Shown here: positions 3,166 through 38,638 of the stretch, piece after piece
Layout of the letters: each line of letters starts with the position of its first letter
How positions within the stretch are numbered: the stretch's first letter is position 1
Assembly: GCA_030583845.1 (NCBI GenBank)
Contig: CP129478.1
Coordinates: 513,835-577,834 of the forward strand
Origin: Candidatus Dojkabacteria bacterium
GTDB taxonomy: Bacteria > Patescibacteriota > Dojkabacteria > SC72 > JAHDCA01
DNA length: 64,000 nt
Reading direction: 5' to 3'
Notes under the pieces: model-generated
Told to the model about the DNA's origin: nothing
Seen by the model: only the letters and a program-made list of their open reading frames with translations
The model's database searches: none
Program-made: the position numbers and the translations under genes

Positions 3166-3328
3166 TCTGATGGTAGACCCCGCCTATTTAAACTAGATTG
3201 TTCTGCCGACGCACTGTGTTGTCTATTCTGCTTTTGCAGAGGTATTTGTGTGAAAGGTGGATTATAGGTTTGAGATTGGGGAGCTTTTTCATTAAAATTC
3301 TTGAATAGGGACTCTTCAGCTATAGAAT

Positions 3329-3358
3329 ACTCCGGGATAAAAGCCGGAGTTTTCTTTT
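3329..3358 (+). terminator. rho-independent terminator after the kinase-like gene
   Basis: Stem ACTCCGG/CCGGAGT with 8-nt loop followed by TTTTCTTTT. Confidence 0.5.
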
Positions 3359-3425
3359 AGGTAAACAAGATGATGATGGTGAAATTTACTATCTGTTCGA
3401 AAAGGTCATCGAGCGTTAAAAATTA

Positions 3426-5662: not shown

Positions 5663-6094
5663 GGGGACGTAAGGCTTCGACAGGAGTATTACGTTCAGAG
5701 CCACAAGTGGAGGCTCCAGCTCTGTAAAACTGGAAACGACTGTAAGTGTCGAAAAACTATCAAACGCTTTCAATAAAGTAGTTGCGTTCGTTCAGAACCC
5801 TATGGGTGCTGTTCAGCCTAACTATATGTTTGCGTAAGCAAGCATTTGAAGGTCTAGCCCTGAGGGGCTGGCAATCTTGATTTCTCCTCCCGCTGAGGAA
5901 TCCTGATTGGTCATTAGCGGGATATAGCCTGGTTTGTGATAACTGCGTATCAGGCCGACCACAAAAGTCAGTTGTGCGGCCGCTCTGTTCCGCTAACCTA
6001 ATAGGCGCGGCTTTAAAAACAGGTTAGCTACACTTGTACAATGGTTCTGTACTTAGCTTCTTGGACGTGGGTTCAATTCCCACCGTCTCCACCA
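5663..6094 (+). ncRNA. ssrA: tmRNA (SsrA)
   Basis: 5-prime GGGGACGTAAGGCTTCGACAGG and 3-prime GGACGTGGGTTCAATTCCCACCGTCTCCACCA form a tRNA-Ala-like acceptor/T-arm with a G3:U70 pair and encoded CCA; internal tag ORF GCG..(or GCT at 5808)..AVQPNYMFA-TAA ends at 5837 (NY + hydrophobic tail as in ANDENYALAA); smpB is present at 53417. Confidence 0.75.
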
Positions 6095-7921: not shown

Positions 7922-8371
7922 CTACCCCTGCCCCCAATCCAACAAATCCGTAAACCTCAAGTAATACCCAAACGGATCCTCCATCCGAAAATCATACCAA
8001 ACATGCTCATGATCCCTCTTCTCCTTCATCTCCTGCACCACAAATTTCCCAAGCACACCCTGAACCTCACCATACTTCTTCCTCACATCCTTCACTGGCA
8101 CAGTTAGCTCAACACCATACCCCCTCTTCGTATCCCTCGGAAAATTCTTAAAATATGACTGATCATACACCTTCTCATCCCCACCATAGAAAGCTAGTAG
8201 GGTATCCCCAGCCGGATCTTTATGAACCATCGTCAAATATCCGCAATACTCCTCTGTAATCGGGTCTTCAACAGCGATCTTGAAACCTAGCTTGCCATAG
8301 AAATCTTTGGCGACATTGAAATCGGGTATATGGAGCTCGAGGAGGAGGTTGTTGTTGAGTGGTTTGTTCAT
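7922..8371 (-). CDS. VOC-family (glyoxalase/bleomycin-resistance fold) protein
   Basis: N-terminal LHIPDFNVAKDFYGKLGFKI beta-alpha-beta-beta-beta module; 149 aa. Confidence 0.55.
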   Translation of the reverse strand: MNKPLNNNLLLELHIPDFNVAKDFYGKLGFKIAVEDPITEEYCGYLTMVHKDPAGDTLLAFYGGDEKVYDQSYFKNFPRDTKRGYGVELTVPVKDVRKKYGEVQGVLGKFVVQEMKEKRDHEHVWYDFRMEDPFGYYLRFTDLLDWGQG

Positions 8372-8529
8372 GGTTAATTATAGGCTGAAAAGTCGATCAT
8401 TTCCATCGAACGTGCTCATCTTCTCTCATGATCAACGGTCGATTTGTATTTCGGCTATGGGCGTCGCTATTTTAGTTGTTGCGTGCTATAATCGGTAACT
8501 GCTATAGGCTAAGCTAAGCACAAGGAAAT

Positions 8530-9102
8530 ATGACTATTTTTACCGGTTTGAACAAGAACGTATCTGAAAAGGTGGGGCTTGTGGGTCGAGAGGTTTTCTC
8601 ACAGATAGGTTCTGATGACTACTACAGAAAAGGTAAGATCAATTCTAACCAAGGAGACTGGTACTTCCAGTATAAAGCAGGGCGATCTGCCGGAAAAGGC
8701 ATAAAGCTACAGAGAGTGGTAAACGATGTGCCTAGATTAGGTGCGCGTGAAATTACTGATCGTAAAGAGCTGGTATTCAATACGGCGACTGGAAGAGTAA
8801 CTATGGGAACTGCGCAGGTGTACACAAGATCGTCCAATGGGGATCGCGAGGTACACCCACGAGTATATTGCTTATCCTTGTATGAAATGGATGTATGCAT
8901 AGGCCAGTATAGGTGCGGCTTTGATTCGACAGAACAGGAGTGGGCAGCGACCTTATCAGACGGATCAGTCAGTGCTGATGATGTACGAGCTGTGTTATTA
9001 CCGTTCTGGGATGAGCATGGTTGGTTGGTGCTTGTAACTCCACACATGCAGGAAGCTGACCAATCTATTGCTTCATTGCTCAAGCACGAGCAGTATCGCT
9101 AG
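8530..9102 (+). CDS. hypothetical protein
   Basis: 190 aa ORF, no motif recognised; borders the degraded region. Confidence 0.35.
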   Translation: MTIFTGLNKNVSEKVGLVGREVFSQIGSDDYYRKGKINSNQGDWYFQYKAGRSAGKGIKLQRVVNDVPRLGAREITDRKELVFNTATGRVTMGTAQVYTRSSNGDREVHPRVYCLSLYEMDVCIGQYRCGFDSTEQEWAATLSDGSVSADDVRAVLLPFWDEHGWLVLVTPHMQEADQSIASLLKHEQYR

Positions 9103-10760
9103 TCGGAGAGTGTCAGACATCGAGAGAACTTTATTAGGATTTAATACGGACACCTCTTCGGCAAAACCCCAACCGCCTGTCTCGGTGCCAAAATCTCATC
9201 ACTCCGCTGATCAGGTACCGGTGTGCGAATATTTCAGGTACCATGATACCCATGCTGCGCCGTGCGAGAATGCAATCGTATGCTCTCCATCACACAGCTG
9301 GAATGTATTCTCAGCTAACATCACTGTGGTGCCGAATCTCGTCCTGATCACAGCTATAACCAACTGACTCGCGAGAAATGCGTCTCCGTTACCATCAGAT
9401 CGACTCCTCCGATGGCAATATGCCTGCCACACGCATTGCACAGGCTCCATCCAGTACCCTCGTTATGCACATAGGTCCATTCTTCCTGATAACTTGAAGG
9501 CTCTTCTGGGTCGCTGAAGACTGGACTGTTTCTATATTCAGAAACACGTTGAGCGACCATCTCGCCTAGAGAACCCCCTGACTCAATCCATACTGACCTC
9601 GATAATTACAATCGACCGTACCCTCCTTTTGGATTTCGGATCGACCACTAATCACCTCGTGATTACTGGAGCTCGAGAATGTGGAGGTAGACTCCCTCCA
9701 TGAGATAAAGGCGTGGTTCCCGGCCTATCCCTTGCTACAGACAGAGTCAGCTTCATCTAATTTAATAACTCCAGCTGTGCATCATATGCTTCCGGAGAAG
9801 ACACCATATATGTACAACCCTCAGCCGCGAATGTCACTCCTCGTGCCGCGCATAACTGAATCAAGTACGCCAGTGTCTTGCTCTTCGGTTGCAGTTACTG
9901 CAAAAACCGACATTCCCATGAGCGGGTAAGAATAGCCAGGAATGATCGAAAACCTCCCAGCTACCATAAGGCTCAACTTGTAAACCGATCCCTCACTGTA
10001 GATAAAGGTACGAAGTAGGATGCCTGTCTCTGCGCATACAGTATCGAGCAACGTACTCATGGCTTCTTGATCAAGCGTGGAGAGCGTGGTTTCTGAGACT
10101 AGGCTCCAGCAACATCAAAAGAAGGCTGTTATATACTCGCTCTAGAGCTCCGAGTCGTGAGACGACATCAGCATGTACTGGAGGGTTGTACTCCTTTGAT
10201 CGGGCTGCAAGAGCTTCAAGATCACCAATTATCTGTTCTGGATGTTCAGGCTCGCCAGAATAAGATTCACCTATCTCGATCAACTACTTCCAATAGCTGA
10301 AGTAGAACCAGTCACATGCTTCACTAATGAAGGATTCTACGACAGGAGTAATCATGGGCCTAGTCCTTCGGCTAGGTCTGTGCACCAACGACCCGATCGA
10401 TCGCCTCTAACTCATCTGGCCCAAGACCGAGGACAGGTTCTGTAGATGCTTCGATCGGTGTGAGATCGACTCTCATCGTATGTTCAACGTCGAGCCGGCG
10501 AAGACGCCCTATCCGGCCAGTAACATACATAAGGCGCACGTTGTCACCAGTGGTTAGTTTATTCAGCTGATCCAGCTTAACGGTTACCCCATACGATCTA
10601 TACTATATACGCTGGGCATAGTCCCAGACGTATCTACTGTTCTAATTATACCTGCAATCCGTTACTTGGACCCAATATGTCTGCCGCCAGTCGACAACCC
10701 TCGACTATCCACACCCACACTCCAGCTATATAATCCCCCAACATAATCTCAATAAGGCTC
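9103..10760. other. about 1.65 kb without an intact gene: only short overlapping ORFs on both strands, consistent with decayed gene(s) or pseudogenes
   Basis: Longest ORFs are 60-99 aa and mutually overlapping; minus-strand fragments (for example 10071-10283 and a continuation interrupted by a TAG near 10390) read like consecutive pieces of one disrupted frame. Confidence 0.35.
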
Positions 10761-10763
10761 AAT

Positions 10764-11474
10764 ATGAACGATATCCACAAAACCCAGCTCGGCATCCTGA
10801 AACAGCTCCTCTTCGCCAAAACCCTTCGCTACTCAGACCTCAAGACCGACCCAGAGCTCGAAAACAACACCTTCCAATTCCACATCGAGAAAATGATGAA
10901 AGAGGGCTACGTTGAGAAAAATGAGAAAGGATATACGCTCACAATGAAAGGGAAAAAGTTTGCGAACCATATCGACACAGACAAAGATAAAGTTGTCGAG
11001 GTGAAAAAGGTCTCCGTGCACATCTATTGCATTCGAGGAGAGGAAGGGAAGGAAGAGCTGCTCTGTTATACCCGACTTAAGCATCCATTCTTTGGCAATC
11101 AGGGAGTACCCAGCGGCAAGGTCGGATATGGCGAAAAGCATGCTGAGGCAGCGGCACGAGAATTAAAAGAGGAGACCAATCTTGAGGGCACACCGCAGCT
11201 ACTTAAAGTGATCCACTACATCGTGAAGGATGAAGATAGTAAAGAAGTTCTGGACGACAAGCTCTTCTTCGATTACTTCTTTATCAATCCCTCTGGCGAG
11301 CTGAAGGGAAGCAGCGAAGGTGAGTATTACTGGGTGCCAGTCACGGAATTGAAGTCGGTCATAAAGAAGCCGTTCAGCAATGTCGAGACATATGAAAGAG
11401 CTGTTGAGAAGATACTAAATTTCGATGGGTGCATAGATTTTGAGGAGTACGAAGATTTTACAAAGGATTTTTAA
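10764..11474 (+). CDS. winged-helix domain fused to NUDIX hydrolase domain
   Basis: N-terminal HTH-like segment (TQLGILKQLLFAKTLRYSDLK...EGYVEK); Nudix box GKVGYGEKHAEAAARELKEETNL (Gly-to-Asn substitution in the box). Confidence 0.6.
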   Translation: MNDIHKTQLGILKQLLFAKTLRYSDLKTDPELENNTFQFHIEKMMKEGYVEKNEKGYTLTMKGKKFANHIDTDKDKVVEVKKVSVHIYCIRGEEGKEELLCYTRLKHPFFGNQGVPSGKVGYGEKHAEAAARELKEETNLEGTPQLLKVIHYIVKDEDSKEVLDDKLFFDYFFINPSGELKGSSEGEYYWVPVTELKSVIKKPFSNVETYERAVEKILNFDGCIDFEEYEDFTKDF

Positions 11475-12388
11475 TGGCAAGATTGTTTGATCAATATATC
11501 GCGGTAGACTGGAGCGCTAGGAGTGTGCCATCTCCCAAGCGTCCGACAGGTGATGCTATCTGGATCGGTGTTAAGTCGTTTGATGAACCAACAGAGGAGC
11601 AATATTTTCAGACAAGATATGAAGCCGAGGAGTGGATCGGGTCTAGATTAGTGAGTGCGGCAGAAGAAGGGATAAGAACCTTGATTGGCTACGATTTCGA
11701 CTTCGGATTTCCTGCTGGTTTCGCGAATGCCGTTGGTGCAAATAATTGGCTTGGGGTATGGGAACTGCTAAACGGGCTAGTAGAAGATAATCAAGATAAT
11801 AGTAACAATCGCTTCAATGTGGCAGATTATCTCAATTCTATATGCACTGTCGCCGAGGAAGCGACCGGCCCGTTTTGGGCAATTCCAAGAGGCACATCCT
11901 ACAAGTATCTATCTGCCAAGAAGGATTTGACCTACCCGTTTATAACTTCGAGCGGTGTGGAATTAAGTGAGAAGAGACTTACCGAACTGAGAGAACCAAA
12001 ATCACAGCCTGTCTGGAAATTGATTGGGAGTGCCAGCGTCGGAGGACAAACGATTTTGGGCATACCGATGCTGCACAGGTTGATTTTCAATGAAAAGCTT
12101 AGAGTGGTCAGCACTATTTGGCCACTCGAGACAGGATTCAACGCTCCATCAAGTGACAAATTGATCTGTCATATTGAGATCTGGCCTGGGATATTTGCTG
12201 GGCGGTTTGTTGGTGAAGCAATCAGGGATCAGGCACAGGTAAGGGCGATAATAGAGTGGTTCGATGAGCTTGATCAATCGGGTGGTCTTGTGAAGTTGTT
12301 ATCGCGGCTGGACAGGTTGAGCGATGATGAGGTGGCAATTTGTGTTGGGGAAGAGGGGTGGATTATCGGGATGGGGCAAAGAAGATAA
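11474..12388 (+). CDS. hypothetical protein
   Basis: 304 aa; N-terminal IAVDWSARS resembles RNase-H-like/DUF429 openings but is not diagnostic. Confidence 0.4.
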   Translation: MARLFDQYIAVDWSARSVPSPKRPTGDAIWIGVKSFDEPTEEQYFQTRYEAEEWIGSRLVSAAEEGIRTLIGYDFDFGFPAGFANAVGANNWLGVWELLNGLVEDNQDNSNNRFNVADYLNSICTVAEEATGPFWAIPRGTSYKYLSAKKDLTYPFITSSGVELSEKRLTELREPKSQPVWKLIGSASVGGQTILGIPMLHRLIFNEKLRVVSTIWPLETGFNAPSSDKLICHIEIWPGIFAGRFVGEAIRDQAQVRAIIEWFDELDQSGGLVKLLSRLDRLSDDEVAICVGEEGWIIGMGQRR

Positions 12389-22708: not shown

Positions 22709-23581
22709 CTAGCCGTTTGGATGAGCAGCTTTATAGGCTTTGTACTCTCGAATGAAGATTGCGTAATCCCCGAGAGAGACCTTGTCGTCATCATTGAGGT
22801 CAGATCGTGCATTGCAATCTGTGAAGTTTTTGTTGCGGCACTCTCTATAATCTTGAAGGAATAGGGAATAATCGCTTAATGAAATCTTGCCATCCTGATT
22901 AAGGTCGCCAAGTAGGTCGCCTGGGTCCGGCGGTGGTGGATCTGGTTCTCCTTCGCCATCATTTACGGTTACGGTCGAGGATGCTCCTAGAATATCTTGC
23001 GCAGTGCCATTGTTATTGCGGACGATGTTAGAGTCGACTGTTGAGCCTGTGCTTGTAAATTCTGTCTTGATCTCATTCTCGCCTTCGGCTAGCACTGTAA
23101 AGCGCACTGTCGCAAGCAGCTGGTTAGATGTAATCGGTGGGGCTGTCTCGTTGTTTCGAAACCCTACCCAGCTAACTCTTACCGTGCCGTTGTTGTGGGT
23201 AATACCGCTATTGCCTTCGTACGGATATGTACCTGCAATTGCACCATTTGTGACTTGGGTCGCCTGTACTTTGGTTCGATCATACTTAATCACTGCGTCG
23301 ACGGCCATTGCGCTTCCACTATTGGCATTGTCAGGATTAACCCGAATCTCTACATTAAACTGCTCGCCATTATCAGCTGTGATAAGTGCAGGGGAGAGGT
23401 TTATGCTGCCGTTTGGGTTATCGGCGCTGCTCCTTGTGTCTTGTGTGTCATTGTTAATAACGACATAAACTGCGATACCTGTGAGCACCATTAATACTGG
23501 AATGATGGCGAGTGATTGTAGTCGCTTTTTATTCTTGTAATTCATTAAATAGATCTTAGACCATACGAAGGTGTGCCACAA
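22709..23581 (-). CDS. secreted protein with cohesin-like domain and C-terminal dockerin-like repeats
   Basis: N-terminal TM/signal; duplicated Ca-binding dockerin-like segments DLNQDGKISLSDYSLFLQ and DLNDDDKVSLGDYAIFIREY; central beta-rich domain resembling cohesin. Confidence 0.5.
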   Translation of the reverse strand: MWHTFVWSKIYLMNYKNKKRLQSLAIIPVLMVLTGIAVYVVINNDTQDTRSSADNPNGSINLSPALITADNGEQFNVEIRVNPDNANSGSAMAVDAVIKYDRTKVQATQVTNGAIAGTYPYEGNSGITHNNGTVRVSWVGFRNNETAPPITSNQLLATVRFTVLAEGENEIKTEFTSTGSTVDSNIVRNNNGTAQDILGASSTVTVNDGEGEPDPPPPDPGDLLGDLNQDGKISLSDYSLFLQDYRECRNKNFTDCNARSDLNDDDKVSLGDYAIFIREYKAYKAAHPNG

Positions 23582-24644: not shown

Positions 24645-24668
24645 GCTCAGACCCGATCGGGTCTGAGC
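24645..24668. repeat. 24-bp perfect palindrome GCTCAGACCCGATCGGGTCTGAGC (identical copy at 63336-63359)
   Basis: Direct reading; exact second copy; related imperfect copy at 984-1053. Confidence 0.6.
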
Positions 24669-24716
24669 GACGATACCCGATCTTGTTACGAAGCCATTTC
24701 CAATGCGTATAAAGCA

Positions 24717-25346
24717 ATGAAATCAAATGCTCAAAGTGAAAAACATAAGAAAATTATGCGCAGGAAGTCACAAAAGCTATTCGAGAAATGTTACTTTGAT
24801 AACCGGAAAGCGGTATTTTTCTACATCTATCGAAAAGTAAACAAAAAGGAACTCGCTGAAGATCTCACGGCCGATGTGTTTGTGAAGTTAGCCGAGCATC
24901 CCGAAGTACTTCAAGATAGAGACGCCAACGGTGTTAAAGCTTGGCTCTTTACAGTATCAAGAAATAAAGTGATTGACCATTTCAGAAAGCTTGGCCGCAA
25001 TATGCAGCAGGTTGAAATGGAGGAGGAGATTTTTGAAATTGTAACTCAGGATGAGCCTGGCTACCTTGAAAGTCTTGCTAAAGATGAAGAGGTTCAGCTC
25101 ATGCTAGCTGTGGTTGAGGGACTTACCTCAGAAGAAAAAGAGATAATCACCCTGCGATTCCACGATGACCTCCAATTTGCAGAGATAGCCGAGACACTTG
25201 GTAAAAGCGAGGGCGCTGTAAAAATGACCTTATATAGAGCCTTGGAGAAAGTTAAAGCCAAGATGGAGTATAGAGATGAATCTGATGATCTGAATCTTGA
25301 GAGTCTGGTTAATGAAGATGACCAGGATCAGGATATAGATCAGTGA
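24717..25346 (+). CDS. ECF-type sigma-70 family RNA polymerase sigma factor
   Basis: Region 2 (FFYIYRKVNKKELAEDLTADVFVKL) and region 4 HTH (LQFAEIAETLGKSEGAVKMTLYRALEKV). Confidence 0.75.
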   Translation: MKSNAQSEKHKKIMRRKSQKLFEKCYFDNRKAVFFYIYRKVNKKELAEDLTADVFVKLAEHPEVLQDRDANGVKAWLFTVSRNKVIDHFRKLGRNMQQVEMEEEIFEIVTQDEPGYLESLAKDEEVQLMLAVVEGLTSEEKEIITLRFHDDLQFAEIAETLGKSEGAVKMTLYRALEKVKAKMEYRDESDDLNLESLVNEDDQDQDIDQ

Positions 25347-25378
25347 GTTCATTAAATAATTAATGTGGATCTTAAATA

Positions 25379-28300
25379 ATGAAAGATTTAATGAAAAAGT
25401 TCAAAAATAGATTAAACAGGAAGCAAGAGCAGAAGCCGGTTAACCCGGCTGCAGAAAGCACTCCAAAAATCAGCACTGATAAAGCCGCACATGATGCAGA
25501 TAAGGCCGACTTCTCAAAGTTCACTGAGATACAGGATCAGATTGGAGATATGTTTGCTCCTATAAGATCACTTGAAGAGAGTGTCGACATGAAGTCGCTC
25601 GATCTGCGACTGGCGCAGAAGCTTGCTGCTGATTCATCTAAGAAAGAGCTGTCGGAGTCAATCAAAGAGCAGGCAGGCAAGGATACATCAAAGCCGCGTA
25701 TTTTCTCAAAGGAGGCATTCGCTTGGGCAGGTGGAAGCATTGCATCGTTACTAGCACTCACGATTGCTGTAATCTTCATCGTCCCACAGCTCATGGGTGA
25801 AAGCTCGCCATCCGATCTAGCAAACTCACAGCCTATTCCTGCGGTTCGCCTGCAGCCTGCCAACATTACATCGTCTGGCTACATTGCGACTCAAAATAGC
25901 TTCACGCTCGAGACAGAGAGCGCCATTACTAGCAACCTCAACGATGCCATAAAAGTGACCCCAGAGGTACCCTTCACCGCTACAGCAGAGGCCGATGGGG
26001 ATGGGTCGAAAATTACAGTTGAGATCGAGGATGAGCTGGCACGTGGTGCTGAATATACAATCGCACTTGTTGATGGTGTCACATTCGCTGATGGCTCACA
26101 GCTGCGCAAAGATATCGAGTGGGTGTTCAGGGTAGAGCCACTATTTGCGGTCATTGGTAGTACTCCTAGAGATAAGGCCAAAGAGGTTCCTGTGGATACT
26201 ACAATTGAATTTGAATTCAACCATAAGAATATTAGCGCCGAAGAATTGGCCAAGCATGTGAAAATTGCACCAGAGCTAACTGGTCGGTATGAGCAGATCG
26301 GCATGAAAGTTGTCTTTATCCCAAATGATAATCTCGCTCCAAATCACCTTTATGATGTCACAGTAAGCGGTGAATTTGCAAACGGTGACGGTGAGAAATT
26401 AGGTGAGGATTATAAGTTTAGCTTTGATACTGGATCCACCGACTCAAAGGGCAAATATATCGAGAGTGATATGGTGTCGTTCGGTTGGATAAGTAAGCCA
26501 GTAGAGAACGTAACAAATGGTGTTGATGTAAATCTGCGAACTTCGGGTGACTCTGCTTATCCTATCACTGTAAAGCTTTACTCTGTACCAGCAGAGAGTG
26601 CAGTTACACACATCACCAACTTAACTGGGGAGATTACCTCATTGCCAGATGGTATTCAGCTTATAGAGCAGAAGCAGTTAAACATCGACGACCCAAGATA
26701 TGTCAAAGCTCTGCCTAATCGTGGATTCTATATTGTCTCCGCAACAAATAAAGCTGGCACAACCACTGCGTATAAGTATTATGTTAAAACCGACCTCGGT
26801 ATTATCGCTACACAGTCCGATGGAAACCATGGCTACGTCTACAATATGGTTAATGAGACTCCTGCCGCAGAGGTAAGCATGGATGTTTATGATAGCGGTA
26901 AGAAAGTAGGGAGTGCGAAAACAAATGGTGAGGGCTTCTATTCGACCGACACGGATGGGAATGTAGTGATCGGTAAAGCTGGCGAGAGCTGGATTGTATT
27001 TTCCAGCAACGAGGGATGGTTAGACTACCCTGCATATGAGGGGATGCATGGAGGCTCTATTTTTAACCGCAATCATACATATCCGACATATCTGAGCACA
27101 GACAGGCCTCTATACAAGCCTGGGGATACAGTCAACTTCAGCGGGATCGTCCGAGAACAGTCGGGTGACACGCTCGCAATCCCGCAACCTCTCACTGTGA
27201 GGGTGGTTGCCGATGAAGCATACAGCTACATGTTTGATAGTGAGAATATTGGAGCAAGCACTCTACCAATCTTTGAAGGTGAATTCAAAACCACAAATGA
27301 ATTCGGAGTTGTTAATGGTAGCTTCACAATCCCTTATACACAGCAGCAAGCATATGTTGGAATTAGGATGTATGTAGAAGATGAGCAGATTGCAAGCACA
27401 GTTATTGATGTCTCTGAATACAGCAAGCCTGATCAGCAGTTTGTGGTGGAGTTTGAGAAACCAAAGTATTTCGCAGGCGAGCCAATCAAGGCTGTGGTTA
27501 CAGGTACCGACTATTCGGGCCAACCGCTCGCAGGCAAGACAGCAAGGCTGCGCCTCTACAAGGGCAATCCTTCGCCTACAATGATGCAATCAGATCATTA
27601 TGAGCAGTACGGATATATCGCATCACAGTTAGTTGAGGAAAAAAATGTGACATTAGATCAAGCTGGTAGGTACAGTTACAGTTTCACACATTTGAGGAAC
27701 AATGGTGACATGAACTTTACGGCATATCGAGTCGCACTTGTTACCGCTGATGCTGAGTATCAAGTGCTTTCACACAGCAGCGCTTTAGTCTCCGACTATG
27801 ACTACGATATTGAGATGACCACAGATTCAACTTCTATCTCAGTAGATGAAGGTCAAACTAAAGATGTAACTTTGAATTTCAAGTCGAAGAAGGTGTGGTC
27901 AGGAGATCCAATCGGCAACAAGTCATTTAATATCGCTGTAACAAGGCGCTGGACCGAATGGGTAGACACCGGCGAGGAGGAATACAATGAATACACAAAG
28001 AGCCATGTGCCTGTTTATAGGACTATTCAGCACACTGAAACTGTTCCTGGCTATGACCAGAGATATACAACTGATGGAAATGGCAATGTAAGCGTAGAAC
28101 TTAAAGATCTGAAGCACGGAAGCTACAGCATCGAGGTTAAATTCGAGCAGGCAGTAAAGGATTATGCGTATAACTTCTACATTTCCGAGTTGAGCAACGA
28201 AAGAAGGCAATATTACAACAATATTGAAGTTACACCGTCTGTCCTGCGAGCTAAGCCAGGAGAGAAGGTTAAAGTAGACATCTCAGTGCTCTCAGGAGGG

Positions 28301-29893
28301 AAGGGAGTATATATGGTTGCCTCATCCAATATAGACCAGCGAGGCAAGCTAGAATTACCAGCAAATGGTCAAAAAGAGATCGAGATCGAGATTAAAGAGA
28401 GCATGGCACCCTACCTTAGCATTTGCGCATATGTTATAGCTACACCGAGTGAAGCCGAACCGAATGGTGAGCGTGGTAAAGGCTGGTCGTATGGCTGTGG
28501 TACTCTCTCTGTAGATTCAGAAGCATATGATCTCGATGTGAAGATCGAGAGCAGCAAGGAAAGTTATAAGCCAGGTGAAGAAGCTGTGCTAAATATCACT
28601 ACAACAGATAGTGCTGGCAAGCCGGTTAGCAGCTCCGTCTCGGTTGCTGTCGTTGATAAAGCTCTCCTAGATCTGAAGAACAACAGCTTCGCCTATCCTG
28701 ACCTTGGGCAGCACTTTGAATCACGCAAGCGATACTTCACATTTGAATTAGGTAATCCTATGTATAACCAGGTCGATGACGGATCTGGAGCTGGTGGCGG
28801 TGGTGGTGATGGTACTTCGGCAAGAGATGATTTCCCTGATACAGCCTACTGGAATCCTACAGTTGTAACTGATGCCAATGGCCGTGCCACTGTGAAATTT
28901 ACATTGCCTGACAGCTTGACCACATGGTCGGTAGCTGGGTATGGCGCGAGCAAGGATAATGACTATGGCTACGGGAGTGACTTATTTACCAGCAGAATTG
29001 ACCAATTCTTAGACATTGAGGTGCCACAATTTATCCGCGATGGAGACAAGATGATAGTTAGAGTCGAAGCTGCAAATTTTGGCAGCGCAGTAAGTGGTAA
29101 GCTAAAATTTGATTGTGAGGGCTGCTCAGAAGGAGATAAGGAGATCGATGTGAATCTACCTGCAAATACACGCCAGGAGCATGAATTTACGATTGTACCC
29201 GCAGCCGGGGTTGAAGAGGCAAAATTGACCGCTGAGCTAGTACAGGGAGAGACCAAGCTTGATGCGATCAGATATACACTCCCAGTCTATACAGATGGCA
29301 TTATCTCGAATGAGCTGCATTCAGAGCTGCTCAAAACTGATGAAAACAGTGCCGAAATCAAGTTCGATCTTGAGTCAGTGCGCAAAGATGCCACAAAGGT
29401 AAACTTGGTCGTATCGAAGGCGTTCTCAATTGATAGCTTCAAATATGCTGTCGATCCCGGATTGAACTCAACACCTCAATTGGCTAGTGCGATCTTGCAC
29501 GATAATTTCATAGTAGAGCATTATGATGATCTGCAGCCAGACACACCGAAAGCCGAGCTTGAGAAGAAACTTGTTTACTATGCTGAACTGCTAAGCACCA
29601 ATCAGGCTGAGAATGGTGGGTTCGGATGGTTTAGCTATGACGCAGTATCGTTAGAATCATCAGTATTGGCTGCTGAAGCACTCGTAGCCGTGGAAGAGCT
29701 GAAGCCATTGCCACAAACGCAGAGGGGCTTGATGGCTAAATATTTCGCGCAGCATATTGTGTCAGATCATACATCAGTGCAGGATAAGATCTTGGCGTTC
29801 AAAGGCTTGGCCGCTGTCGACGCAGATAGTGCGACTTGTTTATTCCGAAGACATGAAAGAGCTTTTCCTAAGCAGCACCGAGGCTCAGTCTGA
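25379..29893 (+). CDS. giant cell-surface protein of the alpha-2-macroglobulin family (N-terminal cytoplasmic segment + single TM + tandem MG/Ig-like domains + A2M_comp-like region); frame is broken near the end and continues in 29757-30881
   Basis: TM helix GGSIASLLALTIAVIFIVPQL at about residue 120-140; repetitive beta-rich MG-like domains; LLSTNQAENGGFGWFS resembles the TED/A2M_comp signature; no CxEQ thioester seen. Confidence 0.55.
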   Translation: MKDLMKKFKNRLNRKQEQKPVNPAAESTPKISTDKAAHDADKADFSKFTEIQDQIGDMFAPIRSLEESVDMKSLDLRLAQKLAADSSKKELSESIKEQAGKDTSKPRIFSKEAFAWAGGSIASLLALTIAVIFIVPQLMGESSPSDLANSQPIPAVRLQPANITSSGYIATQNSFTLETESAITSNLNDAIKVTPEVPFTATAEADGDGSKITVEIEDELARGAEYTIALVDGVTFADGSQLRKDIEWVFRVEPLFAVIGSTPRDKAKEVPVDTTIEFEFNHKNISAEELAKHVKIAPELTGRYEQIGMKVVFIPNDNLAPNHLYDVTVSGEFANGDGEKLGEDYKFSFDTGSTDSKGKYIESDMVSFGWISKPVENVTNGVDVNLRTSGDSAYPITVKLYSVPAESAVTHITNLTGEITSLPDGIQLIEQKQLNIDDPRYVKALPNRGFYIVSATNKAGTTTAYKYYVKTDLGIIATQSDGNHGYVYNMVNETPAAEVSMDVYDSGKKVGSAKTNGEGFYSTDTDGNVVIGKAGESWIVFSSNEGWLDYPAYEGMHGGSIFNRNHTYPTYLSTDRPLYKPGDTVNFSGIVREQSGDTLAIPQPLTVRVVADEAYSYMFDSENIGASTLPIFEGEFKTTNEFGVVNGSFTIPYTQQQAYVGIRMYVEDEQIASTVIDVSEYSKPDQQFVVEFEKPKYFAGEPIKAVVTGTDYSGQPLAGKTARLRLYKGNPSPTMMQSDHYEQYGYIASQLVEEKNVTLDQAGRYSYSFTHLRNNGDMNFTAYRVALVTADAEYQVLSHSSALVSDYDYDIEMTTDSTSISVDEGQTKDVTLNFKSKKVWSGDPIGNKSFNIAVTRRWTEWVDTGEEEYNEYTKSHVPVYRTIQHTETVPGYDQRYTTDGNGNVSVELKDLKHGSYSIEVKFEQAVKDYAYNFYISELSNERRQYYNNIEVTPSVLRAKPGEKVKVDISVLSGGKGVYMVASSNIDQRGKLELPANGQKEIEIEIKESMAPYLSICAYVIATPSEAEPNGERGKGWSYGCGTLSVDSEAYDLDVKIESSKESYKPGEEAVLNITTTDSAGKPVSSSVSVAVVDKALLDLKNNSFAYPDLGQHFESRKRYFTFELGNPMYNQVDDGSGAGGGGGDGTSARDDFPDTAYWNPTVVTDANGRATVKFTLPDSLTTWSVAGYGASKDNDYGYGSDLFTSRIDQFLDIEVPQFIRDGDKMIVRVEAANFGSAVSGKLKFDCEGCSEGDKEIDVNLPANTRQEHEFTIVPAAGVEEAKLTAELVQGETKLDAIRYTLPVYTDGIISNELHSELLKTDENSAEIKFDLESVRKDATKVNLVVSKAFSIDSFKYAVDPGLNSTPQLASAILHDNFIVEHYDDLQPDTPKAELEKKLVYYAELLSTNQAENGGFGWFSYDAVSLESSVLAAEALVAVEELKPLPQTQRGLMAKYFAQHIVSDHTSVQDKILAFKGLAAVDADSATCLFRRHERAFPKQHRGSV

Positions 29894-30881
29894 TCCGTTG
29901 GCCATCGCTCTGTTCATGCAGGCATTTAATCAGATCGGCAATACCGGAGATTCAACATGGCTTTCTGGCTACCTGCCTAACTTGGCTGAAGAATCAGACA
30001 GAGGAATGTTCTGGGAGGATATCGAGAGCAACTTCAAGGTTATGGGAAGCTCAGACTATGTGACATCAGCAGCTTATCTGGCACTAGCACCGCTCGAATC
30101 ATGGGATACCAAATATAAAGTGCGAAACTGGCTGCTTGATCGAAACGTTAATAGCTACTATGGAGACAAGAACTCCGCGGCAATTATGTATGCATTGGCG
30201 GTGGCTGATTCCGAAAGTGTTGCTGACTTTGGTAAGGATAATAATCTAAAGCTATTTGTAAATGGCGAGGAAGTAGAGGATTTTGAGTTAACAGGTGATA
30301 GCCGCTATTCGAAAGTGGTTGCATCAATTGATTCGAAATATCTTGAGGAGGGCGAGAATGTGATTAAAATTGCTAGAAATGGCGAAGGTGAGCTATATCT
30401 GACCGCTAATGTGAAGAGTGTGACGGACGAGATCCCAGAATCGAAAGGCTTCACAATTAGTCGATCATTAACCGATCTGGATAGTGGTAAGCCGATTGCC
30501 GAGTCAGACTTGCAGGTTGCAGATGTAGTGAAGGTGACTGTTAAAGTGACTCCGGATGCTGATTATACAAATGTAGTGGTGCGTGACTTTGTGCCTTCAG
30601 GCACGGAGCCGTTGCGATTCAATCTAGCCGGTGTATCAATGGAGACGATGCGAAAATTCTGGCAGTACAATGGCGTCTCTGTTGATAGGAGTGGTGTTGC
30701 AGCCAAGGATTATGTAAGCTTCGGCACTGGCACAATGGAGAAGGGGAAAGAGTATAGCTATGAGTATCTGCTTGTTGTGGCAAATAAGGGGGAGCTAAGT
30801 GGTGGGTCAGCCAGCGTATTCTTGGAGATGTTTCCTGATATCGCTGGGTATGTTAGCACTGCGAAGGTAGTGATCGACTAG
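29757..30881 (+). CDS. C-terminal part of the alpha-2-macroglobulin-like protein in the +1 frame (frameshift relative to 25379-29893)
   Basis: NSYYGDKNSAAIMYALAVAD resembles the C3/A2M [23 protein letters not shown] segment; C-terminal beta-domain like the receptor-binding domain; frames overlap at 29757-29893. Confidence 0.5.
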   Translation: MCQIIHQCRIRSWRSKAWPLSTQIVRLVYSEDMKELFLSSTEAQSDPLAIALFMQAFNQIGNTGDSTWLSGYLPNLAEESDRGMFWEDIESNFKVMGSSDYVTSAAYLALAPLESWDTKYKVRNWLLDRNVNSYYGDKNSAAIMYALAVADSESVADFGKDNNLKLFVNGEEVEDFELTGDSRYSKVVASIDSKYLEEGENVIKIARNGEGELYLTANVKSVTDEIPESKGFTISRSLTDLDSGKPIAESDLQVADVVKVTVKVTPDADYTNVVVRDFVPSGTEPLRFNLAGVSMETMRKFWQYNGVSVDRSGVAAKDYVSFGTGTMEKGKEYSYEYLLVVANKGELSGGSASVFLEMFPDIAGYVSTAKVVID

Positions 30882-33556: not shown

Positions 33557-35092
33557 GTGAAATTTAACGCCATGAACCACCAAGACCAATTCCTAAACAA
33601 CTCAAATCTGGCACCAGGGCAAAGTGTCGGGAGCATATCAGCTCAGCCTGCAGTGGTAACGCCGCCAGTAGCTCAGCCTGCAGTGGTAACGCCGCCAGTA
33701 GCGCAGCCTGCTCCAGTAACTCCACTACCCGTTGATCAGCCAGCTGTCTCAGAAGAGCTAGCTGCAGCTGTTCAAAGCTCTCCAGCCGCACCCGATCCGA
33801 TTAAGATCGCCGAGGCTACAACTTCTGCAATCAGTACGACTGAAGCATTAAATGATTCAAACATAGCTGTAGATAGCAGCACGCCAATCGTTGAGCAAGC
33901 TCCACCGAAAGCAAAAGCAAGTCCATCTACCGACAGCGAGGTAATTGAAGAGATAGAAGAGCTAGAGCAGAAAGTTAATAGCTCGCAGATGCCAGAGGAG
34001 CTTCGGGAAAAAGCCTTACGATCAATCGAGAGATTGTATCGCATGGCGAAGCGAGGAAGCTACACAGGTGAATTTGAGACGGTAGAGAAATATATCTATT
34101 GGATTACAAGCATCCCGTGGGGGACATACACTGAAGATAGGCTTGATGTCGCGAACGCTAAGGGGATCATGGACAAGACACACTACGGTATGGATACAGT
34201 CAAAAATTTGGTACTCGATTATCTGGCTGTGATGCAGCTCAAGAATAGTGCGATTGCTGCGCAAGGCCAGAATTCAGCTCAGCCGACTGTCACGCCTGGT
34301 GCTGCATCAGCCTCTGTCACACCTGTAGCCCCGGAGATGGCTATCCTTCGAGGATCATCCGCAAACGCCCCTGTGATGCTATTCGTCGGATTGCAGGGTG
34401 TTGGTAAGACCTCGATTGCCAAGTCGATCGCTATGGCGATGGGGAGAGATTTCACAAGGGTCGCGCTTGGGGCCATCGGCAGTGTGCAAGCATTGCGTGG
34501 GCAGTCTAAGGCATTTCTCGATGCTGAGCCAGGACAGGTGGTGAAAGCATTGATCCGCACCAAGAGCATGAACCCGGTCATCCTACTAGACGAGATAGAT
34601 AAGGCAAGCGGCCAGAGTGGATTGCTCAACGATATTATGGCAGCGTTGTTGGAGATACTTGACCCAGAGCAGAACAGCGCCTTTATCGACCATTACATTG
34701 ATCACCCGATCGATCTATCGAAAGTATTTTTCATCTGTACGGCGAACAACCTGGGGACATTGTCTGCAGCACTTCTAGACCGCATGGAGGTTATCCGCTT
34801 TACCAGCTACAACGACGAAGAGAAGACAACAATCGCCAAGAATTTCTCATTCCCGAAGGTGATAGAGAATACTGGACTCCGACCAGATCAGATAGTGATC
34901 GAAGAAAATGTATGGCCACTACTTGTACGCCCTGTTGGCTTCGATGCAGGACTGCGCCAGCTTGAGAGAAATCTCGCGACTATGGTGCGCGCAGTCGCCA
35001 GGAAGATAGTTGAGGGTGCACCAGCTCCTATTGTTATAACGACTGAAAATCTAAAAGAATTTGTATTGCCTGACCAAGGGCCGTTAAGCTAG
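33557..35092 (+). CDS. Lon-like AAA+ protein lacking LON-N and S16 protease domains, with Pro-rich tandem-repeat N-terminus
   Basis: Collinear with the Lon ATPase module: YIYWITSIPWG, GLQGVGKTSIAKSIA (Walker A), ILLDEIDKA (Walker B), EILDPEQNSAF, LLDRMEVIR (sensor 2); the ORF ends after the AAA alpha-domain. Confidence 0.6.
   Translation: MKFNAMNHQDQFLNNSNLAPGQSVGSISAQPAVVTPPVAQPAVVTPPVAQPAPVTPLPVDQPAVSEELAAAVQSSPAAPDPIKIAEATTSAISTTEALNDSNIAVDSSTPIVEQAPPKAKASPSTDSEVIEEIEELEQKVNSSQMPEELREKALRSIERLYRMAKRGSYTGEFETVEKYIYWITSIPWGTYTEDRLDVANAKGIMDKTHYGMDTVKNLVLDYLAVMQLKNSAIAAQGQNSAQPTVTPGAASASVTPVAPEMAILRGSSANAPVMLFVGLQGVGKTSIAKSIAMAMGRDFTRVALGAIGSVQALRGQSKAFLDAEPGQVVKALIRTKSMNPVILLDEIDKASGQSGLLNDIMAALLEILDPEQNSAFIDHYIDHPIDLSKVFFICTANNLGTLSAALLDRMEVIRFTSYNDEEKTTIAKNFSFPKVIENTGLRPDQIVIEENVWPLLVRPVGFDAGLRQLERNLATMVRAVARKIVEGAPAPIVITTENLKEFVLPDQGPLS
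33641..33730 (+). repeat. 30-bp tandem repeat (2 perfect + 1 diverged copy) encoding AQPAVVTPPV repeats
   Basis: GCTCAGCCTGCAGTGGTAACGCCGCCAGTA x2 exact at 33641-33700, third copy diverged. Confidence 0.7.
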
Positions 35093-36148: not shown

Positions 36149-38638
36149 TTATTGGACTGGGTTGGTTGGCTCCTCGGGACTCCCAAAATCTGGAGATTCA
36201 TATCCTGGCTGGGCTGGCTGACTTGGTGGTGGAGTCGGAGCTGTTGATTCAACAGGAACCGTGCCTCCAACAATGCCCTGTGAAGTGATATGTGACCTAC
36301 CTTTTTGCAATGCATCTCTTTCCGCGCTTACCATGTCTGACATAGATGCGTATGTTTCGGCAATGCCATCACCATCCATATCCACCATGCCTTGAGTGTT
36401 TACATCCGATTGTGGTACAGCATGATACTTCAGCCTATCCTCAATCATCTGGTCAACCTGCTCCTTGCGGCTCTGGACTGCACGGCTGATTACATTTGTT
36501 TTGTCCCTGCGGACGCGATCTTTGATTGGATCTTGGACTGCTGGCGGGTCATACATCATCGCAAGCTCCTCGAGCGGGCGTTGTTTCTTAATGCCTTGTG
36601 CTTCTTCGGCACGCATTCTCTCGAGGTCTTTCGGATCGGAGGTAATAAGCTCATGCTCGGCTTGGCTGGATACCACCTGGATAGCCACATGGTTTGCTCC
36701 AGCGAAGAATAAGCCCTGACCCTTGTCGGCAGTTAATAGATACTGTTTCTCACCTTCTGATAAGTTGAAAGTGCCAGTGAGCCGGTCAATCGCAGCTGGG
36801 CTCTGCTTCATCAAGAATTGGATCGAAGAGTTAGTAATAATAGCGCGTCCCATATCATTCTTAAGGAAATCATCAACATCTTGAGTGATTGTCGTGAGTC
36901 CGAGGTAATATTTACGTGCTCGTTTCGCCATGCCGTACAAGAATTTGGCTGAGTCCTCATTTTGCATCATGTACCACGCCTCATCCACGATCAAGATCCG
37001 TCGCTTCATGTCACGTCGAATTCTGGTCCAGATATAGTCCAGCATCAGATACATAACCATCGGACGGAGCTCGTCGGCCATATCACGGATGCTAAATACT
37101 GTGAACGGATTATTAATTTCGACCGTGCTCCGTTCATTGAACACGCCCTTGGCTGAGCCGATGATATATCGTTCGAGGCGGCTTGCCATGCTTCGCGCTT
37201 CAGGCTCTGCCATGCCTTTCAATACCTTGTACAGGTCCTCAAGCAGAGGGTAATCGGCGTTTCGCTGGGTCGCAGGATCGAGTGTGATCCCTTTCTCGCG
37301 ATAGGTCAGGATTAAGGCACGATCCAAGATTGCAATTTCAATAGGGTTCAACTGTCCCATCATTAGCCTGAAGAAGCCCTGTAATGAGAGCATCTTAATC
37401 CTCAACTCATCTTCATCTTGCCCAAGTCCTGACAGCTCAAATGGATTCATCTTGTCGCCTTTATCTTGTGAGAATGAGATATATGCACCGCCAACAGCTT
37501 GGCACAGTCTCTCGTACTCTTTCTCAGGGTCGATAATTATCAATTCTGTCCCAAACATCAGGCTTCTCACCGCTTCCAGCTTCACGAAGTAGCTCTTACC
37601 AGCACCCGACCTGGCAAATACAACTGTATTTGCATTCTCCATATCGAATCGGTCAAAGATAACCAAGCTTCGGTTATGCTGGTTGATCCCATACATGATC
37701 CCATGATCCATGGTGAGCTCCGAGGTGACAAATGGGAATGTAGTAGCCAACGATGTCGTATCCATATTTCGGGTAATAAACATCTTGTCCAAGCCGAGCG
37801 GCTGTGTGCTGATCAGTCCTTGCTCCTGCTGGAGAACCGCTGGCTTTGCAGTCACATTCATCGAGGCTAAAGTCGATGTCACATTCTTGCCGATCTTTTC
37901 GAGCTCATCCTTGTCTTTTGATTGAATGGTGACATACATCCCGAAGTGGAAGAATTTCTCGGTGCCCTCTGCGATCGAGTCTTGAAGCTGCTGAGCGTCG
38001 GTTAGGGCTACTTTGAGCGTGGGATCGACGGCTTTGCGGCCTTCCATCTGCGAGTACAACGTTGCCTCCATCTCACCGATCTTGCGCTTTAACTTTTGCA
38101 AAATCACCTTCGAATCTACTGGGTAATAGAAAGTGCTGATATAGAGCGAATGCTCGAAGTTAATTATAGGCGAGAGCCAGTTCGGCCCGACAAAACGTGG
38201 ATAGCCCTGCGGGCTAACAAAATATGTCTGGAAGTACCAGTCGCCAATCTTCAGGTGGTTAAAATCTACCTCCATGTCGATTGGGGCGATAAGGTCTTCG
38301 ATTGTAAGCCCTTCGATTTTTCGCCCATCTACCGCTTGCTCTTCTGCGGCTATCTGTTCCTCATCATTCTTCGGCGCGTAGTTTTTACCGATAACGGGGA
38401 GATAGGCGAGGAAGTTTTGGAGTGGGCTACGTTTCTTGATTACTGTTGGGTCATATCGCTCTTTATCTTCGAGCTCTTTGGTTTTGAGGCGATCCTCTTT
38501 GACCTGTCGCTGGAAATCATTGATCTTCTTTCCTGGGTCGAGTGTCTCATTTCGCTTATCGATCATCTGCTGAGTCTTAGACTGGTGAGTCTTAGTGAAG
38601 CGGTTTGGATCTTTTTCAAATGGTTGTGTGGTGCTCAT
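36149..38638 (-). CDS. type IV secretion ATPase VirB4 family (Gram-positive TcpF/PrgJ/TrsE type)
   Basis: N-domain LKIGDWYFQTYFVSPQGYPRFVGPNWL...SLYISTFYYPVD; Walker A FARSGAGKSYF; IIIDPEKEY; Walker B ILIVDEAWYMM; 829 aa. Confidence 0.75.
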   Translation of the reverse strand: MSTTQPFEKDPNRFTKTHQSKTQQMIDKRNETLDPGKKINDFQRQVKEDRLKTKELEDKERYDPTVIKKRSPLQNFLAYLPVIGKNYAPKNDEEQIAAEEQAVDGRKIEGLTIEDLIAPIDMEVDFNHLKIGDWYFQTYFVSPQGYPRFVGPNWLSPIINFEHSLYISTFYYPVDSKVILQKLKRKIGEMEATLYSQMEGRKAVDPTLKVALTDAQQLQDSIAEGTEKFFHFGMYVTIQSKDKDELEKIGKNVTSTLASMNVTAKPAVLQQEQGLISTQPLGLDKMFITRNMDTTSLATTFPFVTSELTMDHGIMYGINQHNRSLVIFDRFDMENANTVVFARSGAGKSYFVKLEAVRSLMFGTELIIIDPEKEYERLCQAVGGAYISFSQDKGDKMNPFELSGLGQDEDELRIKMLSLQGFFRLMMGQLNPIEIAILDRALILTYREKGITLDPATQRNADYPLLEDLYKVLKGMAEPEARSMASRLERYIIGSAKGVFNERSTVEINNPFTVFSIRDMADELRPMVMYLMLDYIWTRIRRDMKRRILIVDEAWYMMQNEDSAKFLYGMAKRARKYYLGLTTITQDVDDFLKNDMGRAIITNSSIQFLMKQSPAAIDRLTGTFNLSEGEKQYLLTADKGQGLFFAGANHVAIQVVSSQAEHELITSDPKDLERMRAEEAQGIKKQRPLEELAMMYDPPAVQDPIKDRVRRDKTNVISRAVQSRKEQVDQMIEDRLKYHAVPQSDVNTQGMVDMDGDGIAETYASMSDMVSAERDALQKGRSHITSQGIVGGTVPVESTAPTPPPSQPAQPGYESPDFGSPEEPTNPVQ

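Follow-up and report, generated by a model that had tools for sequence, protein, structure and literature searches.

We describe here a stretch of 64,000 nucleotides from the genome of a Candidatus Dojkabacteria bacterium (assembly GCA_030583845.1, contig CP129478.1, positions 513,835 to 577,834 of the forward strand; this whole stretch is called the window, and coordinates refer to it unless a locus name precedes them), in which the gene for an extracytoplasmic function (ECF) sigma factor is directly followed by the gene for a giant surface protein, here called the partner, whose ectodomain is an alpha-2-macroglobulin (A2M) that lacks the thioester. On balance, we think it fairly probable that the two genes form an autoregulated ECF sigma/anti-sigma operon in which the cytoplasmic tail of the partner is the cognate anti-sigma domain, a reading that draws on gene context, topology and conservation. 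We favor it because the two genes are strictly adjacent, because the operon seems to carry the sigma factor's own promoter, because the sigma factor is minimal, because the partner is a single-pass protein with its N-terminus in the cytoplasm (N-in), and because its cytoplasmic module is specific to the family. At the same time, our data speak against a simple model wherein a protease that attacks the partner's bait region is the general signal for this system.

A conserved sigma factor/partner pair

The locus reads, in order, as an AP-endonuclease-family gene that ends at 24612, a hairpin, an ECF-type promoter, the sigma factor gene (24717 to 25346, forward strand, as are all parts of the pair and its promoter described below) and the A2M-like partner gene, which starts at 25379, 32 nucleotides 3' of the sigma gene. 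An earlier interpretation made from the letters alone, here the sequence-only reading, had called the first of the pair an ECF sigma factor, and database models bear this out: the 209-residue product matches Pfam Sigma70_r2, Sigma70_r4_2 and Sigma70_ECF, passes the NCBIfam sigma70-ECF model TIGR02937 with 84 bits against a cutoff of 42.9, and aligns with its orthologs, so that on its sequence it is an ECF (group 4) sigma-70 factor. The best-scoring specific NCBIfam model is that of the BldN family, TIGR02952, but at 114.3 bits the score falls below the cutoff of 206.45 and we reject membership in that equivalog family. The protein is a minimal sigma-2/sigma-4 ECF factor, and the ortholog alignment reveals no regulatory extension that is kept; an acidic C-terminal tail of 25 residues (residues 185-209, 25269 to 25343, YRDESDDLNLESLVNEDDQDQDIDQ) occurs only in the sigma factor of this genome. 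Some gene callers place the start at Met14, skipping residues 1-13 (24717 to 24755), although the conserved promoter favors the upstream ATG.

The pairing of sigma factor and partner, which the sequence-only reading had suggested looking for in relatives, holds in both directions. In each of the 13 loci examined, the window included, the two genes are neighbors with the same orientation, and the gaps between them range from -23 to +39 nucleotides. A sigma gene lies directly upstream of all five partner homologs examined (P0002, P0003, P0004, P0151 and P0165), and a partner gene lies directly downstream of all seven sigma homologs at 43-63% identity (P0066, P0067, P0071, P0075, P0078, P0080 and P0081). 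The arrangement persists while sigma identity drops to 41-44% and partner identity to roughly 20-30%. Since many of the loci have different genes on either side, it is only the sigma/partner pair that is conserved, and no gene other than the partner is conserved beside the sigma gene across the 13 loci as a possible regulator.

A scan of genome contigs with the A2M alignment, whose back-translated patterns were too specific, recovered only L003 (also numbered L004). Beyond this family, a metagenome contig search with the sigma alignment returned only distant sigma factors (24-33% identity) from high-GC organisms. Several of these are followed by genes for small single-pass proteins (L005 743-1804, L007 1211-2176, L008 7296-8435, L009 1954-3264 and L010 1481-2119), which have two short N-terminal helices (F..AL..AD.AL ... 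AD.RLR.RL) and are loosely reminiscent of the partner's tail.

The cytoplasmic tail and the transmembrane helix

The sequence-only reading had described a cytoplasmic N-terminal segment of about 120 residues and one transmembrane helix, and this topology survives closer inspection: a hydropathy scan finds a hydrophilic N-terminal segment of 113 residues, followed by the only stretch of transmembrane grade in the partner, a Gly/Ser/Pro-rich helix at residues 114-139 (25718 to 25795; AlphaFold2 models a helix at 121-138). In all 11 family members compared, the 20 residues before the helix contain 3-8 Lys/Arg and those after it 0-2, and this positive-inside cluster ahead of the helix indicates that the N-terminus is cytoplasmic.

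Within the tail, family alignments, AlphaFold2 and HMMER delimit a conserved cytoplasmic module (residues 44-100, 25508 to 25678), which is the candidate anti-sigma domain. Alignments of 11 and then of 22 members show a conserved core of about 55 residues made of three short helical segments joined by variable linkers, with the signature h..h...h..hh / D.S.LD.K...KL...G / LAK.I..K, followed by a basic linker and then the transmembrane helix; across the family, the tail is 59-113 residues long. In the window the conserved helices fall at residues 44-58, 71-83 and 86-99, and D75 is near-invariant. When a HMMER profile of the tail region was run exhaustively against 1.84 billion representative proteins, it matched 18 at E <= 0.001, ten of them 1793-1850 residues long, five 960-988 and one 1062 (P0165, a long form cut off at the end of its contig), with two probable fragments. 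All 18 matches lie at the N-termini of family members, and the tail module is therefore specific to the partner family; where this family has a cytoplasmic tail, other A2M homologs begin with an ordinary signal peptide or a lipobox.

An ECF-type promoter that abuts the sigma gene

Directly 5' of the sigma gene, at 24685 to 24711, lies the ECF-type promoter, with a -35 element GTTAC, a 16-nucleotide spacer and a -10 element CGTATA. The motif GTTAC-N16-CGTAT(A) occupies the same position, with the same fixed spacing, in every one of the 13 loci. L017 departs from it by two mismatches and the other 12 loci by one or none; the rest of the intergenic DNA has no similarity evident by eye between most loci. 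Elsewhere in about 190 kb there are three further matches at the fixed N16 spacing and at most one mismatch. A looser pattern has two other matches in the window, at 6305 (N15) and on the reverse strand at 61113 (N17), which we reject as promoters because their spacing is wrong and their number lies within the chance expectation of 0.86. A scan of the locus for sigma-70-type promoters returned 11 sites, against 11.0 expected in shuffled sequence. For comparison, Bacillus ECF promoters are described as tgaAAC and CGTA/CGTC (PMC5758882), and the motif found here resembles them both in the CGTA of the -10 element and in the ..AC of the -35 element (PMC5758882).

By analogy with the ECF paradigm, in which such a sigma factor recognizes the promoter of its own operon, we infer that the motif provides positive autoregulation of the sigma-partner operon. 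In the window (24706-24719), the -10 element ends 5 nucleotides before the sigma ATG, and in 11 of the 13 loci (the window, L001-L003, L013-L016 and L019-L021) the gap between CGTAT(A) and the annotated sigma start is 0-5 nucleotides. The -10 element thus abuts the start with no room for a Shine-Dalgarno sequence, and the sigma mRNA therefore appears to be leaderless or nearly so. Upstream of the promoter, a terminator-like scan and direct reading of the sequence identify a perfect palindromic hairpin with a 10-bp stem (24645 to 24668), which probably insulates or terminates the preceding unit.

One locus carries the motif twice. In L003, a second perfect GTTAC-N16-CGTAT at 2382-2406 stands 42 nucleotides 5' of a gene (2449-3627) just upstream of the sigma gene, which encodes a 392-residue single-pass membrane protein without a Pfam family and which, to judge by this motif, is a candidate second member of the regulon. 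The homolog of this gene in L002 (620-1804) has no match to the promoter motif at up to one mismatch.

The ectodomain is a thioester-less alpha-2-macroglobulin

The macroglobulin-like character that the sequence-only reading assigned to the partner is confirmed by Pfam matches to Big_5 (twice), MG2, A2M_BRD, A2M and bMG10, and the motifs it had quoted are present (NGGFGWF at residue 1412 and YYGDKNSAAIMYALAVAD at residue 1593). Outside the membrane, the protein begins with two Big_5 Ig-like domains (residues ~157-355, 25847 to 26443), seen as two Pfam stretches and modeled by AlphaFold2 as beta domains with a predicted local distance difference test score (pLDDT) of 80-95. These are followed by an array of macroglobulin (MG) beta-sandwich domains (residues ~356-940, 26444 to 28198), recognized by Pfam MG2, by weak bMG6 and Big_1 matches and by Foldseek. 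The A2M bait-region domain (BRD; residues 950-1099, 28226 to 28675; Pfam A2M_BRD, E 1.6e-15) and the A2M (MG7) domain (residues 1155-1234, 28841 to 29080; Pfam A2M, E 2.1e-15) enclose a bait-like flexible segment (residues 1100-1154, 28676 to 28840) that includes GSGAGGGGGDGTSA. Next come a TED-like alpha/alpha helical domain (residues ~1352-1612, 29432 to 30215, with coordinates transferred from the alignment to the ortholog P0002), which is interrupted by a frameshift, and a bMG10 domain (30447-30818; Pfam bMG10, E 2.5e-12).

Structure prediction supports these assignments. The AlphaFold2 model of residues 1-940 has a mean pLDDT of 75, with the ectodomain blocks mostly at 80-95, and its top Foldseek matches in the Protein Data Bank (PDB) are Escherichia coli ECAM (5a42, E 4.4e-27) and Salmonella A2M (4u48). 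The C-terminal CUB-TED-MG8 module was assessed on the intact ortholog P0002 rather than on the frameshifted copy of the window, the two proteins being 54-58% identical overall and 66-67% identical over this module. The model of residues 1151-1803 of P0002, its C-terminal 653 residues, reaches a pLDDT of 85.9 and a predicted TM score (pTM) of 0.76; it matches the ECAM structure from MG7 to the C-terminus (4ziu) with a Foldseek E of 4.6e-32 and TM scores of 0.64/0.66, and it also matches C3, C5, A2ML1 and TEP1. Although the Pfam TED model itself has no match in the partner, the fit of the P0002 model to 4ziu shows that the CUB-TED-MG8 module is present. With its MG array, BRD, MG7 and CUB-TED-MG8, as recognized by Pfam and by fold matches, the partner is a true alpha-2-macroglobulin.

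It is also one without a thioester, as the sequence-only reading had noticed in finding no CxEQ motif. The column that holds CxEQ in 30 of 42 aligned A2Ms reads STPQ in the window (29468-29479) and STAQ, STIN or STIS in orthologs; CxEQ is absent from 22 of 22 family members, and the partner of the window has only four Cys, none of them in the TED. By this sequence signature, the partner belongs to the thioester-less subclass of A2Ms. A Gly-rich stretch at residues ~1117-1148, between BRD and MG7, is variable across A2M alignments and ends at a conserved motif (DDFPDTAYWNP in the window). Bacterial A2Ms carry their bait at this place, and from its position we infer that the segment at residues 1100-1154 would function as bait.

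A one-base frameshift in the window copy

The sequence-only reading treated the partner as one gene from 25379 to 30881, silently reading through what is, in the assembly, a pair of open reading frames (ORFs) split by a one-base frameshift. The first ORF (25379 to 29893) encodes 1504 residues as assembled and is 100% identical to the NCBI protein P0001, annotated as 'alpha-2-macroglobulin family protein' of Candidatus Dojkabacteria; the NCBI annotation covers this truncated 1500-residue product only. A tblastn search with the intact ortholog P0002 shows that both ORFs are collinear with one protein and that one extra base, at about 29831 (site 29828 to 29834) and inside the TED-like domain, shifts translation into the +1 frame. 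The true frame of the first ORF thus ends at about 29830, and the remaining 349 residues (29832 to 30881, in an ORF called as 29757-30881), identified by Pfam and by the P0002 alignment, comprise the second half of the TED, the CUB return and bMG10. Removal of one base yields an 1833-residue protein that is collinear with intact orthologs of 1772-1850 residues. We reject programmed frameshifting, of which there is no sign: positions 29828-29834 contain neither a slippery heptamer nor a stop-codon context, and every ortholog is encoded in a single frame. The extra base falls exactly at the end of a small hairpin (29812-29831, 7-pair stem), perhaps by chance, or perhaps because the hairpin gave rise to an assembly or sequencing indel.

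The extra base reflects either a mistake in the assembly or true decay of the gene. If it were genuine, the 1504-residue product would be truncated in the TED, this genome would have no functional trap, and the lesion would represent an intermediate on the way to the short form of the partner described below. We regard this as a possibility to be taken seriously but not as the account we would back. It agrees with the position of the frameshift outside any homopolymer, with the existence of related lineages that lack the whole C-terminal half, and with the lack of an intact, near-identical copy in a collection of 5.8 billion proteins. In addition, four further pairs of overlapping ORFs checked in the window proved to be complete, separate genes rather than split ones, and the assembly is thus not generally riddled with indels. 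Nonetheless, single-base indels are a common artifact in a metagenome-assembled contig of this kind (1.04 Mb), and the second ORF is fully open, 67% identical to the C-terminus of P0002 without gaps, and has no further lesions, which argues against long-standing pseudogenization.

Long and short forms of the partner

The family is rare, with 18 clusters at 50% identity among the 1.84 billion representatives, and by source names it is confined to Dojkabacteria. Its members come in two forms. The window, L001-L003 and L017-L021 have long forms, whose contexts are more varied than those of the short forms. The short-form partners, of 960-988 residues (L013 7597-10563, L014 7588-10470, L015 1765-4665 and L016 7567-10521), share the synteny of the window (AP_endonuc_2, sigma, partner, HD_4 and GreA in L013-L015; the same without HD_4 in L016). 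They align to residues ~32-935 of the window partner, stopping before the bait-region domain, and so keep the tail, the transmembrane helix, the Big_5 pair and the MG array, together with the sigma gene and the promoter, and are without BRD, bait, MG7, CUB, TED and MG10. Because the short forms retain sigma factor, tail and transmembrane helix in the absence of the trap, coupling to the sigma factor does not need the protease-trap half of the protein. Neighbor-joining trees of the sigma factor and of the partner disagree on branching; the direction of change accordingly rests on parsimony, which, with long forms in more and more diverse contexts, favors the view that some lineages have lost the trap half.

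A proposed circuit and its alternatives

In the circuit that we favor, the sigma factor would read its own GTTAC-N16-CGTATA promoter, as expected of an ECF factor, and would transcribe itself together with the partner gene. The partner, a single-pass N-in membrane protein with a complete thioester-less A2M as its ectodomain, would use its three-helix tail of about 55 residues to keep the sigma factor membrane-bound until damage to the ectodomain, or its engagement, occurs, a role suggested by context, topology and conservation. By analogy with RseA, RsiW and RsiV, release would most likely proceed by proteolytic trimming of the ectodomain and then intramembrane cleavage, and the freed sigma factor would raise expression of the operon and renew the supply of the surface protein. 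As the sensing half, all members of the family would share the membrane-proximal Big_5/MG array, and the bait/TED trap would be an add-on of the long forms only.

Several observations weigh against this circuit. The sequence-only reading had likened the N-terminus to an anti-sigma factor. The adjacency, the single-pass N-in topology, the ECF promoter and a helical module found only in this family agree with that proposal, but homology does not: the tail has no anti-sigma match, nor any other of note, in Pfam (E <= 10, four orthologous tails) or in NCBIfam, and a profile of the tail run against PDB sequences (E <= 10) matches no solved structure. The tail contains no Cys, no HxxxCxxC zinc motif and no match to the ASD-I families (zf-HC2 / RskA / RseA_N). 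AlphaFold2 models helices in the tail at 35-58, 60-68, 71-83 and 86-99 with low to moderate confidence (pLDDT 40-70), and homology of the tail to the small partners of the distant sigma factors is not claimed, the hhalign probability being 0.2%. Moreover, the family is small, recognition of the promoter by this sigma factor is assumed from the ECF paradigm, and the frameshift means that the window's own copy of the partner may be defective.

Consider, then, the main rival, that the A2M-like protein is merely a surface protein whose gene is co-transcribed with that of the sigma factor and depends on it, that its tail serves to insert or target a very large ectodomain, to localize it or to bind some other cytoplasmic partner, and that the sigma factor is controlled elsewhere. 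A tail without homology to known anti-sigma domains is compatible with this, as is the fact that certain giant surface proteins have signal sequences with conserved, extended N-terminal regions; and the second copy of the promoter motif in L003, placed before the gene for another membrane protein, means that the sigma factor may have ordinary regulon targets next door. Against it stand the conservation of no other sigma-adjacent regulator gene across the 13 loci, a sigma factor without a conserved regulatory extension, and the established experience that a positively autoregulated ECF sigma factor without a negative regulator would be unusual. The tail itself, with 59-113 residues and three conserved helices, goes far beyond the n-region of a signal peptide, and we consider this account unlikely. 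A different question is what the ectodomain responds to if the tail is indeed an anti-sigma domain. The sequence-only reading saw a direct coupling of protease sensing at the envelope to transcription, and for the long forms one may imagine that a foreign protease cuts the bait, that the ensuing rearrangement of the trap frees the sigma factor, and that consumption of a single-use trap induces its resynthesis. The long forms do possess all parts of a trap (BRD, a Gly-rich linker resembling a bait, MG7, CUB, TED and MG8), an apparently autoregulated operon would suit such a replenishment loop, and in RsiV there is a precedent for an anti-sigma factor that directly binds the attacking enzyme, lysozyme. 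Yet syntenic short forms without BRD, bait, TED and MG10 keep the sigma factor, promoter, tail and transmembrane helix, so that bait cleavage cannot be the general signal of the family, and the proposal is weakened accordingly; in addition, some 1000 residues separate the bait from the membrane and no path from it to the transmembrane helix is evident, there is no thioester, and in this genome the trap half is frameshifted. We hold bait cleavage to be an improbable trigger, and we are equally doubtful of the complete chain of events in which an attack on the surface A2M, whether by bait cleavage or by destruction of the ectodomain, would lead to intramembrane proteolysis, release of the sigma factor and re-expression of the trap from the leaderless, autoregulated promoter.

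Neighboring genes

The genes around the pair in the window encode AP_endonuc_2, HD_4, GreA, Trans_reg_C, AAA+ ATPase and M23 peptidase proteins. Two genes upstream of the sigma gene, a 290-residue protein with cohesin and dockerin domains is encoded at 22709-23581 on the reverse strand, and it is kept in the closest relative (L001 208-1038, reverse strand); the cohesin/dockerin pair is cellulosome-type assembly hardware in a genome of the Candidate Phyla Radiation (CPR). A gene for an AAA+ ATPase that has a Lon lid domain but lacks a protease domain lies in the window at 33557-35092 (forward strand), in L001 at 10776-12257, in L002 at 8199-9455 and in L003 at 9793-11037. It directly follows the A2M gene in L002 and L003, lies 2.6-2.7 kb downstream in the window and L001, and is absent from the remaining loci within the range seen; speculatively, its product might act as an unfoldase tied to the turnover of the membrane protein. 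Farther along, 5 kb downstream, an 829-residue P-loop ATPase of the VirB4/TraC/TraG-like kind (36149-38638, reverse strand), a motor of the type IV secretion/conjugation type, is encoded, and a homolog is also found near the sigma/partner pair in L001. At a greater distance, the window contains a tmRNA gene (Rfam, 111.8 bits), which was not reported by ARAGORN, and smpB, at 5663-6094 and 53417-53890, both on the forward strand and about 47 kb apart.

What an A2M-based anti-sigma factor would mean

ECF sigma/anti-sigma pairs are the commonest bacterial route from an envelope signal to transcription, and their diversity lies in the sensor ectodomain and in the anti-sigma domain. Operons of this kind are already known; what is new within them is the A2M ectodomain and the tail module. 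Full-text searches of the literature found nothing linking anti-sigma factors with macroglobulins, and nothing relevant on ECF systems in Dojkabacteria or Patescibacteria. In our view, this is probably a new anti-sigma architecture. Both of its variable parts would be new, the sensor ectodomain as a complete thioester-less A2M and the anti-sigma domain as one that matches no known class. Should the improbable protease-triggered chain of events described above hold, the partner would be the first anti-sigma factor built on a protease trap, with a new class of anti-sigma domain.

Dojkabacteria belong to the CPR and are uncultured, with reduced genomes and probably an episymbiotic way of life, and to our knowledge almost nothing has been learned of gene regulation in this group. 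If that protease-triggered chain were correct, the circuit would be, as far as we know, the first defined signal-transduction circuit (sigma factor, anti-sigma factor, promoter and signal) in the CPR/Patescibacteria. Because the sigma factor, the candidate anti-sigma tail and the promoter are all defined, the circuit could be rebuilt in E. coli or Bacillus subtilis without culturing the host, and it might find use as an orthogonal ECF switch. With long and short forms at one syntenic locus, nature has provided an experiment that bears on the signal perceived by the ectodomain. For the biology of bacterial A2Ms, the circuit raises the prospect that expression of such a protein may depend on what becomes of it at the cell surface.

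Comparison with known systems

In its outer part, the partner is closest to ECAM/YfhM of E. coli and Salmonella, with which it shares the multi-domain fold (MG array, BRD, MG7, CUB, TED and MG8/bMG10) and an outward-facing position anchored at the cytoplasmic membrane; CPR bacteria are generally regarded as lacking an outer membrane. In the absence of CxEQ, it resembles the A2Ms of the YfaS/MagD type, which likewise lack the thioester. The differences are nonetheless considerable. ECAM/YfhM has a lipobox or signal peptide, whereas the partner has an N-terminal transmembrane helix with a long, conserved cytoplasmic tail and no lipobox, and, unlike both bacterial types, it carries two Big_5 domains ahead of the A2M part. 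ECAM/YfhM is encoded beside pbpC and YfaS/MagD in the mag operon, whereas the partner shares an operon with an ECF sigma factor, and neither pbpC nor mag-operon genes are found within 5 kb of it. With neither a lipoprotein signal nor linkage to pbpC, we do not classify the partner as an ECAM/YfhM-type A2M.

Other comparisons come from signaling. RsgI proteins of clostridia are membrane anti-sigma factors with large ectodomains of borrowed carbohydrate-binding modules; they respond to a macromolecule outside the cell and regulate genes for surface machinery. Sigma-I/anti-sigma-I pairs have been linked to polysaccharide sensing and to cellulosome regulation (PMC6582324). The candidate pair described here would be alike in joining an anti-sigma domain to a large, borrowed ectodomain, but RsgI acts on a sigma factor of the sigma-I family and not on an ECF factor, and it differs both in its anti-sigma domain and in the folds of its ectodomain. 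Conceptually, the nearest known system is RsiV/sigma-V of Bacillus and Enterococcus, in which an anti-sigma factor directly senses an attacking enzyme: the ectodomain of RsiV is a lysozyme receptor, and binding licenses site-1 cleavage and intramembrane proteolysis. Here, too, the ectodomain fold and the ligand are unrelated to those of the partner, and RsiV has a class I anti-sigma domain. The sigV-rsiV operon is autoregulated (PMC5758882), as we propose for the operon of the window.

For the tail itself, the most instructive comparison is with RsbN, the anti-sigma factor of BldN in Streptomyces, which is a single-pass protein with a cytoplasmic N-terminus of 117 residues and a transmembrane segment at 118-139, and whose anti-sigma domain, three helices with flexible linkers and no similarity to other anti-sigma factors, founds class III (PMC6101532). 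RsbN is likewise encoded next to the gene of its ECF sigma factor. The dimensions nearly coincide, with 113 residues and a helix at 114-139 in the N-in, single-pass partner of the window; the three short helices of RsbN, which are joined by linkers and, as is characteristic of class III, bind sigma-2 and sigma-4, may have their counterpart in the partner's predicted conserved helices and variable linkers; and neither tail has similarity to class I or class II anti-sigma domains. Sigma-BldN is also the best-scoring specific NCBIfam model for the sigma factor of the window, yet it remains below its cutoff (114 vs 206 bits). The two systems come from different phyla, Actinobacteria as against the CPR, and the ectodomain of RsbN has 272 residues and an unknown fold, whereas that of the partner is an A2M. 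No sequence similarity between RsbN and the tail was found, by a profile search of PDB sequences that covers RsbN if its chain is included there. We do not claim membership of the tail in class III; rather, RsbN provides the precedent for an anti-sigma domain of this layout that is invisible to homology searches, as we suggest for the tail of this A2M.

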